Source: a virus
Strand: one strand, 5' to 3'
Virus record (IMG/VR): IMGVR_UViG_3300029305_002985
Location: 4,092 to 68,091 of that record
DNA length: 64,000 nt
Of this stretch, positions 52,784 to 53,750 are shown one piece after another. Numbering within the stretch: position 1 is the stretch's first letter; each line of letters starts with the position of its first letter. The notes under the pieces were generated by a model. The model was not told the DNA's origin. It searched no databases and saw only the letters and a program-made list of their open reading frames with translations. A program made the translations under genes and the position numbers.

Positions 52784-53671
52784 TTATAAGTCTGTTTCAT
52801 AGTACCAATAATAACCTTTAGAAAAATGCGTTCCTTTATTACCTTTTACGGCATCATAAATCGCGCCGCCCTACATATCTTTTGTCGCGGCAGCCGCACT
52901 CTCATATCTTTTTAATACATTTTTATTTTCATCAGTTTTACACACGATTTTTTTCTTTGAGTATTTACGAACATAGTCAAAATATTTTTCTTCAAATTCT
53001 TGATATGATAAATTTGAAAAATAAATGGATAAACCGTAAGTTTTATTATAGTTTTTTAAATTTGAAGCTAGTCTTGTTCTTACGCAATCTAATGATTTAC
53101 AATTTGTATAACCTTCTTCCAATAAAAAAACTGCACAGTCTTTCTCTGAAGAAAACTCTTTTTGTAATTCATAAATATATACAGATTTACTATTATAAGT
53201 GCCATAATTAGTATAATCAGTAGGAAGATTATTAAGAGCTAAGAGCTGCCGTAATTTATAGTCTGTTATTCCAAAATACTCACAAGTTTGCTATTGATTA
53301 TGACATTGATAATAATATTGAATAATATCTTCTGGATTGTCCAACATATAAACTTGAGAGTTGGTTTGTCCACCAGTTTTGATATTATAACCGTAGTTAT
53401 CTAATGTTGATTGATAATATTGGATCCAATATTTTTCTCGATTATCAAGATCCTAAGTCGTACAAACTTCAATTTCTTCAATAATGAAGTTATCTTCTCC
53501 ATATTTTCTAATTGCACGAGCAAGTTTATGATTAGATTTTCCAGTTCTGGCGTGGCTTAGATGCTAATTAAAACGGGTCTAAATAGGCTAAATTGTTTGC
53601 CCAATATAAACCTTATTATTAGCAAGACAAGTAATTTTATAAATAGAACCATTCATTATATTATTCATCAT
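52784..53671 (-). CDS. GIY-YIG homing endonuclease with six in-frame TAG codons, in an AT-rich island
   Basis: RBS AAGGAG + ATGATG; GSIYKITCLANNKVYIGQT, KYGEDNFIIEEIEVC, NYGYNIKTGG, C-terminal KGYYWYYETDL; 296 codons ending in TAA with six TAG and no TAA/TGA in frame. Confidence 0.6.
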
Positions 53672-53750
53672 TTTTCTCCTTCAGGTTTTTCTCTGATATT
53701 ATATATGAAAATTCTTAAAATAAAATTAACTTAATTTGCCCAAAATAATG

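Follow-up and report, generated by a model that had tools for sequence, protein, structure and literature searches.

The endonuclease I-TevI of the phage T4 td intron is not translated from early read-through transcripts and is produced only at a late stage, the block consisting of an RNA hairpin over the ribosome-binding site (RBS) together with a late promoter. The T-even Seg proteins, among them SegF and SegG, are free-standing GIY-YIG endonucleases that act by 'intronless homing' and are encoded in the standard genetic code. A further case comes from the TGA-recoded Agate phages, in which a group I intron endonuclease lodged in an early gene shows a preference for the recoded stop codon, and Borges et al. 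proposed that such in-frame stops block production of the enzyme until late infection (doi 10.1101/2021.08.26.457843). Phages that read TAG as glutamine (Gln; 'code 15') have been described among the crAss-like, Lak and phAss-1 groups (Peters et al., PMC9523058; PMC10607447). Here we describe a homing endonuclease gene (HEG) of the GIY-YIG family with six in-frame TAG codons, found in a stretch of 64,000 nucleotides (hereafter the window) that spans positions 4,092 to 68,091 of the virus record IMGVR_UViG_3300029305_002985. On sequence grounds we consider it probable that the gene is an active, mobile, free-standing HEG of the I-TevI type, carried on a cassette of ~1 kb in a TAG-to-Gln phage and translated only when TAG is decoded.

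HEG appears to share with I-TevI (PDB 1MK0/1LN0) both the catalytic fold and the catalytic residues, as well as the general layout, in which the nuclease occupies the N-terminus and distinct DNA-binding modules the C-terminus; in HEG these modules are predicted, and their region has no significant match to known structures. Unlike the intron-encoded I-TevI, HEG is free-standing, with no detectable intron RNA, and no I-TevI-style hairpin covers its RBS (z=+0.35); the block would here consist of the six TAG codons. With the Seg genes it has in common an intergenic insertion between conserved genes, a variable presence, the co-conversion of its flanks and the altered sequence of the adjacent gene in the HEG-bearing (HEG+) allele, but it differs from them in being TAG-recoded and in that the evidence for its homing is purely population-genomic. 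Like the Agate enzyme, it is a homing endonuclease in an early-gene context that is loaded with the recoded stop codon, although Agate phages reassign TGA to tryptophan (Trp) and their endonuclease is intron-encoded, whereas HEG is free-standing and belongs to a TAG-to-Gln phage of a different lineage; beyond the Agate case, it comes with an explicit empty-site comparison and with evidence of co-conversion in two backgrounds. The idea of gating by recoded stops is already published (Borges et al.), and HEG is a second, independent instance of the pattern. The phage that carries it is uncultured and large (at least 138 kb), and no phage record is more than 41% identical to its topoisomerase. 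It resembles code-15 phages in its tRNA with anticodon CUA (tRNA-CUA), in the use of TAG at conserved Gln positions of structural genes and in its standard-code replication genes, and is similar to phAss-1 in size, GC content and tRNA count (PMC10607447).

A complete GIY-YIG endonuclease in an AT-rich island

The segment under study, 52784-53750, extends on the minus strand from the last base ahead of the neighbouring upstream gene (53750) to the final base of the HEG stop codon (52784). Its GC content is 0.281 (0.283 over the insert defined below), compared with 0.42 and 0.455 in the 2-kb flanks, and among all 995-bp windows across the 64 kb (mean 0.430, standard deviation 0.045) the HEG segment is the minimum, the sole other region that comes near it being 20.5-22.5 kb. 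The six in-frame stops of the gene, at codons 28, 31, 36, 73, 127 and 267, are all TAG, and its 295 codons contain neither TAA nor TGA ahead of the terminal TAA; given the composition of the gene (A 0.39, T 0.33), the probability of such a run is 8e-10, and the remaining five frames at this place hold 8-41 TAA or TGA each.

When TAG is translated as Gln, residues 8-88 of the protein match the Pfam GIY-YIG domain (PF01541) with E=2e-11 and 44 bits, well above the cut-off of 22.6, and homing endonuclease families of the PHROG collection are matched with a best E of 6e-27; the N-terminal 90 residues also align by sequence to the crystallised catalytic domain of I-TevI (E=2e-5). The motifs GSIYKI and KVYIG supply Y11 and Y22, which are present and invariant in the family alignment together with R33, H37, E79 and N96, and the last four align with R27, H31, E75 and N90 of I-TevI and are invariant in 29 homologues. 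A structure modelled with AlphaFold2 (AF2) on 32 homologues (mean pLDDT 88) was compared with 1MK0 by Foldseek (target TM-score 0.85, rmsd 2.0 A, E=6e-6), and the predicted fold is that of the I-TevI catalytic domain, a three-stranded sheet flanked by helices. After a low-confidence linker, residues 112-290 are confidently modelled as helical and beta-beta-alpha modules that have weak structural matches only (I-HmuI with a probability of 0.41, and helix-turn-helix proteins), and a Pfam search of this C-terminal region gave no domain match. The protein ends in ...SKGYYWYYETDL, i.e. ...KGYYWYYETDL. Between two HEG+ strains the ratio of nonsynonymous to synonymous substitutions (dN/dS) is 0.06 at a synonymous divergence (dS) of 0.21, which points to strong purifying selection on the protein.

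TAG is read as glutamine

The positions of the TAG codons, which read CTA on the plus strand, coincide in several cases with Gln in homologues (Table 1). The first and third fall within the context YIGQTxQ....RFxQH, and the TAG-free relatives L046 and L048 have CAA at both places; the two nearest full-length relatives from other phages, 62% and 54% identical to HEG, are standard-code and devoid of TAG. With TAG read as Gln, peptides that span these codons include VYIGQTIQPIQTR and FNQHLSHAR. In the second HEG+ strain (contigs L043/L044/L045) all six TAG codons of the window are kept and a seventh is present at codon 84. The same correspondence is met outside HEG, since the single TAG (codon 43) of a virion structural gene at 26541..27329 aligns with Gln in 24/24 homologues (TTVYAQGG). 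Among the 67 curated genes of the window, 45 end in TAA, 21 in TGA and one in TAG, and this lone TAG 'terminator', at 51283, was rejected as an out-of-frame artefact inside a frameshifted gene. Taken together, these observations show that TAG serves this phage as a sense codon for Gln.

The presumed decoder of the HEG codons is the amber suppressor tRNA-CUA, detected by ARAGORN and scoring 55.5 bits against the Rfam tRNA family. It is 97 nt long, with an A1.C72 mismatch, G73 and an encoded CCA, and it shares A1 and G73 with the tRNA-Gln(UUG) of the phage. As a separate observation, a 24-nt insertion in its variable region can fold into a stem-loop of its own, the loop of which (CUCUGAA) mimics an anticodon loop with CUG. 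An origin of the suppressor from tRNA-Tyr had been considered, as the anticodon arms are alike and the extra arm is long, and was dropped because the Thr and Lys tRNAs resemble it to the same degree.

These results agree with a first-pass annotation made from the letters of the window, in which the segment had been described as visibly AT-richer than its flanks, as the site of a complete GIY-YIG endonuclease ending in a C-terminal GYYWYY motif and interrupted by six TAG codons, and as a gene whose translation needs TAG decoding: the sliding-window GC plot makes it the lowest-GC kilobase of the window, the ORF is intact over 295 codons with the expected domain, C-terminus and TAG positions, and a tRNA-CUA lies in the same window.

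A mobile cassette and its empty sites

Comparison with relatives places HEG on a cassette that supplies the upstream gene with a new 3' tail, that contains in addition a short spacer, the Shine-Dalgarno (SD) sequence and HEG itself, and that lies exactly between two small genes which are translationally coupled in relatives. The relatives were reached through an exact-protein index, by way of diverged homologues of the 112-aa protein encoded downstream, and their contigs were then read; scans of IMG/VR with three neighbouring proteins returned no relatives, and megablast of 50.8-56.2 kb against deposited phages gave no match. At the locus, thirteen metagenome contigs drawn from many samples match the window with 100% identity and for this reason represent one clone, which is uninformative on mobility. 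The second HEG+ strain carries the gene at the same site, with an identity of 95.5% at the nucleotide and 97% at the amino-acid level. Four HEG-less lineages (L051, L052, L053/L054 and L104), which are 65-86% identical to one another, have instead a 93-aa gene that overlaps the 112-aa gene by ATGA at the same precise junction, ...GCTATGTTA/AGAAAGGCAGGAGCACAATGAATAAAG... (the slash marks the junction; L053 reads ...TTCAAAAATCAAATAAATGCTATGTTA/AGAAAGGCAGGAGCACAATGAATAAAG...).

The 60 nt of the empty site (30 nt on either side) are the most conserved stretch of the two flanking genes among the HEG-less lineages, with a pairwise identity of 0.86 vs a mean of 0.72, and it is tempting to regard this conserved junction as the HEG recognition site. 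On the HEG+ side, identity to the empty-site alleles falls to 53-70% over the 30 nt that lie immediately upstream of the insertion point. The last ~55 nt of the upstream 95-aa gene (53751..53806) form a HEG-associated tail, ...FKNSMNKMLRDALLKKY, that replaces the empty-site sequence ...FKNQINAMLRKAGAQ, and the displaced original 3' end (AGAAAGGCAGG.GC.CAATG), found after the HEG stop, now provides the RBS region of the 112-aa gene.

Over the body of the upstream gene the window is 95% identical to the HEG-less L051, and the HEG+ L043 is 97% identical to the HEG-less L052, while the two HEG+ strains are only 71% identical to each other. From ~27 nt upstream of the insertion through HEG and the 112-aa gene the relationship is reversed, the window and L043 being 90-100% identical and both 68-85% identical to the HEG-less lineages, and this phylogenetic incongruence has its identity break within ~30 nt of the insert. 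Together with the flank downstream of it, one and the same cassette thus stands behind two upstream alleles that are 71% identical, each of which is also found without HEG, and this reads as the footprint expected of homing with asymmetric co-conversion. The allele of the 112-aa gene travels with HEG: it is 95.6% identical between the window and L043, both HEG+, and 68-85% identical to HEG-less relatives. HEG is located between the 95-aa and 112-aa ORFs and not inside an intron; a search of 51.8-54.6 kb against Rfam at E<=1 found no family, group I and II introns included, and the gene is accordingly best described as free-standing, since no intron RNA is detectable around it.

As its presence or absence at one precise site in related genomes shows, HEG is mobile. 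The first-pass annotation had called it a mobile homing endonuclease and had suggested a comparison with related phage genomes that lack the insert; that comparison recovers the ATGA-overlap empty site in four lineages, with the cassette behind two upstream alleles, and upholds the call. The annotation had also entertained a recently acquired element that is still adapting, and this the data do not support, all six TAG codons having been kept across dS 0.21 under a dN/dS of 0.06. Because the nearest relatives outside this phage lineage lack TAG and have CAA at the aligned sites, the TAG codons of HEG are derived, and mark a gene that is at home in a recoded genome.

Two further peculiarities of this neighbourhood are worth recording. 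The 95-aa and 103-aa genes (53810..54349, minus strand) occur as sharply different alleles, with about 70-80% nucleotide identity (L043, L051, L052, L053), and their distribution is scrambled across strains whose identity elsewhere is 90-95%, making a local diversity hot spot beside HEG. On the other side, a nucleotidyltransferase-like gene (~51053..51807, minus strand) carries a frameshift near 51415-51430 relative to an intact 256-aa homologue in L051, residues 1-130 lying in one frame and 131-256 in another in all contigs of the clone; it could be a pseudogene or a programmed frameshift.

An excess of TAG over other genes

TAG density was compared between HEG and 66 other curated genes of the window (14,725 codons). 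Walking past both window ends in search of late genes led only to further early or replication genes (Pol III alpha, NrdD, dUTPase and PemK/MazE), and the comparison is accordingly one with genes inside the window. HEG has six TAG in 295 codons vs four in the 14,725 codons of the other genes, a 76-fold difference (Fisher p=1e-8); two of these four are in a gene at 12328..13563 and one each in two virion/tail genes. The Gln codons of HEG comprise CAA 11, CAG 1 and TAG 6, against CAA 24, CAG 5 and TAG 0 in the seven other low-GC genes of the window, and the contrast of 6:12 vs 0:29 is significant (p=0.0017). AT-richness alone therefore fails to account for the TAG codons, since equally low-GC genes have none in 29. 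In its codon usage HEG is a gene in which TAG is freely allowed, set among genes from which TAG is excluded.

Two other genes of the window encode GIY-YIG domains. The one with two TAG codons (codons 36 and 104; 12328..13563, minus strand) encodes a coiled-coil protein of 411 aa in which a membrane segment at the N-terminus is followed by the long coiled coil and, at the C-terminus, by the GIY-YIG domain; a comparable architecture is found in IMG/VR L007. The other (21496..21975, minus strand; 159 aa, Pfam E=1e-7, GC 0.33) has no TAG; it is located in the AT-rich island at ~20.5-22.5 kb, between the gene for the topoisomerase II large subunit and the suppressor tRNA, and has its own consensus promoter, running from 22034 to 22006. 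A further AT-rich ORF of 153 aa (48773..49234, minus strand; GC 0.29, and 0.19 at third codon positions) adjoins tRNA-Trp and has no Pfam or PHROG match and no TAG.

Transcription and translation signals

The operon in which HEG is found is opened by a host-type consensus promoter that is preceded by a terminator, and the next promoter of the same stereotyped form follows the 112-aa gene; the stretch that separates these promoters has no predicted terminator. Thirty minus-strand copies of this promoter, TTGAnn-N17(TG)-TATAAT-ATATATGTAAT, extend from 203 to 59566 (examples are those at 54379-54407, 52400-52428, 47518-47546 and 41253-41281) and are found ahead of tRNA clusters, replication genes and small ORFs; the plus strand has only two comparable matches. 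Ahead of HEG itself there is, apart from a strong SD sequence, only a -10-like TATAAT, with no acceptable -35. Since neither a convincing promoter of its own nor an upstream terminator was found, HEG is probably co-transcribed with its early neighbours, and the simplest reading is that it is transcribed along with these TAG-free genes from a promoter that the host RNA polymerase should recognise without modification. The operon is otherwise free of TAG.

The region upstream of HEG (TTAATTTTATTTTAAGAATTTTCATATATAAT) resembles that of the TAG-containing virion gene, but the alignment needs two indels. A 'late promoter' shared by the two genes was dropped as a candidate, the exact pattern having matched the virion site only, and the 42 contigs to which a metagenome scan with this pattern led were unrelated and AT-rich, none of them belonging to this phage. 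The virion gene (minus strand; PHROG 2729, of the family of Pfam PF27173) stands alone among genes of nucleic-acid metabolism, with its own promoter (TTTACT-17-TATAAT, 27380-27408) and a terminator directly after it (26505-26529).

Table 1. Coordinates of the HEG locus, its TAG codons, its signals and the suppressor tRNA within the window
Feature	Coordinates	Strand	Remarks
HEG, GIY-YIG homing endonuclease ORF	52784..53671	-	295 sense codons, then TAA
Inserted cassette, ~997 bp	~52781..53777	-	from comparison with empty sites; GC 0.28
Upstream 95-aa gene	53751..54038	-	no assigned function
Retained original 3' end of upstream gene	52764..52780	-	AGAAAGGCAGGCGCGCA; downstream of HEG
Downstream 112-aa gene	52425..52763	-	no assigned function
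Host-type consensus promoter	54379..54407	-	TTGATT-17-TG-TATAAT; opens operon 103aa-95aa-HEG-112aa
Next stereotyped promoter	52400..52428	-	TTGAAA-17-TG-TATAAT; downstream of 112-aa gene
Shine-Dalgarno AAGGAG	53676..53681	-	4 nt before HEG ATG; read from sequence
TAG codon 28	53588..53590	-	Gln in 24/25 closest homologues (GQTxQ)
TAG codon 31	53579..53581	-	variable column; Q in P0003 and P0004
TAG codon 36	53564..53566	-	invariant Gln (RFxQH), 25/25 closest homologues
TAG codon 73	53453..53455	-	TTQDL at this place in L016, L019 and L025
Codon 84 (EKYWIQYY)	53420..53422	-	CAA in window, TAG in L043/L044/L045
TAG codon 127	53291..53293	-	CHNQ-x; Q in about half of close homologues
TAG codon 267	52871..52873	-	within predicted C-terminal DNA-binding repeat
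tRNA, anticodon CUA (amber suppressor)	22640..22736	-	ARAGORN; Rfam tRNA 55.5 bits

Elsewhere in the window, ARAGORN reported a tRNA-like gene with a two-base anticodon ('ga') and a tRNA-Arg(TCT), at 45390..45464 and 40463..40535 (both on the minus strand); the ends of the tRNA-Arg(TCT), AAATCAT...CTAATTTC, are without CCA and have an atypical look. The proteins with PemK-toxin and MazE-antitoxin domains are encoded on contig L055 (1828-2175 and 6148-6621), about 3-8 kb past the right end of the window.

Discussion

The arrangement described above suggests how the expression of HEG may be bound to the genetic code of the phage. The gene would be transcribed with its early neighbours from the host-type promoter, and ribosomes would stop at codon 28 unless tRNA-CUA outcompetes release factor 1. 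Three of the TAG codons fall within nine codons of the catalytic core, and a stop at codon 28 leaves a fragment of 27 residues. Because ribosomes would not pass this codon without tRNA-CUA, synthesis of the endonuclease would be tied to the code switch of the phage; the TAG codons would be the only evident barrier to expression, and cutting and homing would be coupled to the recoded phase of infection. The target is probably the conserved junction of HEG-less relatives that co-infect the same cell, and we propose that the HEG+ allele is immune because the insert splits this target and the adjacent ~27 nt are heavily substituted.

The first-pass annotation had seen in the TAG-laden gene a possible built-in temporal switch, and the sequence context, a TAG-free operon behind a host-type promoter, fits this idea. 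We infer the timing of HEG synthesis from that context; the TAG load may have been selected for timing or may simply be tolerated. Several considerations speak against a large delay or a selected function. The 'early' label of the stereotyped promoter comes from its likeness to the sigma-70 consensus. A reasonable sigma-70-like promoter (TGGACT-17-TATAAT) also serves the suppressor tRNA itself, so that suppression may start early and any delay could be small. Gating is not a general need of such genes in this phage, given that the 159-aa GIY-YIG gene is TAG-free and has a consensus promoter. Moreover, the TAG:CAA:CAG ratio of 6:11:1 in HEG is close to the outcome of AT pressure alone where TAG is free, and at codon 84 an ancestral CAG seems to have changed to CAA in one of the strains and to TAG in its counterpart, for which no selection of TAG is needed. 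We put forward only as a tentative proposal, and a somewhat doubtful one, that the TAG load is a selected translational lock which keeps HEG silent until the suppressor tRNA beats release factor 1.

The TAG codons might otherwise be a passive by-product of drift in a dispensable, AT-biased HEG, CAG having turned into TAG or CAA with any delay being incidental, and TAG having been purged only from genes that need to be translated before suppression sets in. This is possible, although we would not call it probable. It sits well with the Gln codon counts of HEG, TAG and CAA being equal in GC content, and with the split at codon 84, which fits an ancestral CAG resolved both ways; in AT-rich recoded loci, L026 for instance, TAG has taken the place of CAG almost fully, and the TAG codons of HEG have no significant N-terminal clustering (a hand hypergeometric estimate gives about 0.08). 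On the other hand, drift of this kind is hard to reconcile with the complete lack of TAG among the 29 Gln codons of the other equally AT-rich window genes (p=0.0017), with the single TAG in each of two virion genes, which leaves HEG an outlier even among TAG-tolerant genes, and with the same enrichment that Borges et al. saw independently in another HEG (doi 10.1101/2021.08.26.457843). It is worth adding that L026 (3818-16119; IMG/VR UViG_3300001528_000534) is an unrelated AT-rich (GC 0.30) viral contig of 140 kb, in which TAG by far outnumbers CAG across a plus-strand module that includes a GIY-YIG gene with nine TAG codons (YIG*S), while the adjacent minus-strand genes have almost none. The existence of such genes in AT-rich recoded phages (9 TAG in 240 codons in this instance) invites the idea that the cassette was imported from an AT-richer and more TAG-recoded phage, its GC content and TAG density being those of the donor. 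The cassette has a GC content of 0.28 vs 0.43, and it carries diverged last ~10 codons of the upstream gene, which at only 18/30 nt identical to the empty-site alleles suggest a diverged donor. Nevertheless, low GC relative to the host genome is general in this HEG family, standard-code members included, the nearest relatives (62% and 54% identical) are TAG-free, and the one TAG-rich relative to be found, the L026 gene, reaches just 36% identity and belongs to a uniformly TAG-rich module; since the TAG codons have been kept over dS 0.21 in two backgrounds, with one more differing between strains, we regard imported codon usage as rather unlikely.

Presence and absence alone give no direction, and HEG could in principle be an ancestral resident nuclease lost by deletion in the relatives, with no insertion at all. 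We consider this very improbable: four diverged HEG-less lineages (65-86% identical) share the precise ATGA junction, which independent deletions would not yield, HEG+ genomes have kept the displaced 3' terminus of the upstream gene alongside the tail that replaced it, and the cassette is joined to two upstream alleles (71% identical), each of which also exists without HEG. Lastly, standard-code gene callers (JGI) fragmented HEG in most public assemblies, as would be expected if the TAG codons terminated translation and the locus were a decaying pseudogene or the source of a 27-residue peptide. This interpretation is effectively refuted by the absence of TAA and TGA from the frame (8e-10), by a dN/dS of 0.06 that holds over the full length, by the conservation of the C-terminal half with TAG-free homologues and by the presence of TAG at an invariant Gln both in HEG and in a virion protein. 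The fragmentation is better taken as a practical warning that standard-code gene calling splits recoded genes like HEG.

The proposal that recoded phages delay translation by means of in-frame stops has so far been largely without experimental test, and the HEG locus offers a compact case for it: the predicted substrate, the empty site, is known from natural HEG-less relatives, HEG+ and HEG-less alleles occur naturally, the suppressor tRNA is identified and the TAG-free neighbours provide internal controls. The locus extends the one published example of a preferentially recoded homing endonuclease, and the combination of TAG with a free-standing gene, as opposed to TGA with an intron-encoded one, suggests convergence. 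Were the TAG load indeed a selected lock, homing into HEG-less co-infecting relatives would take place only in the recoded phase, the element would be inert, and hence harmless, in a standard-code genome or cell, and the locus would be a natural and assayable reporter of the phage code switch; the state of the genetic code would then limit where a selfish element acts.

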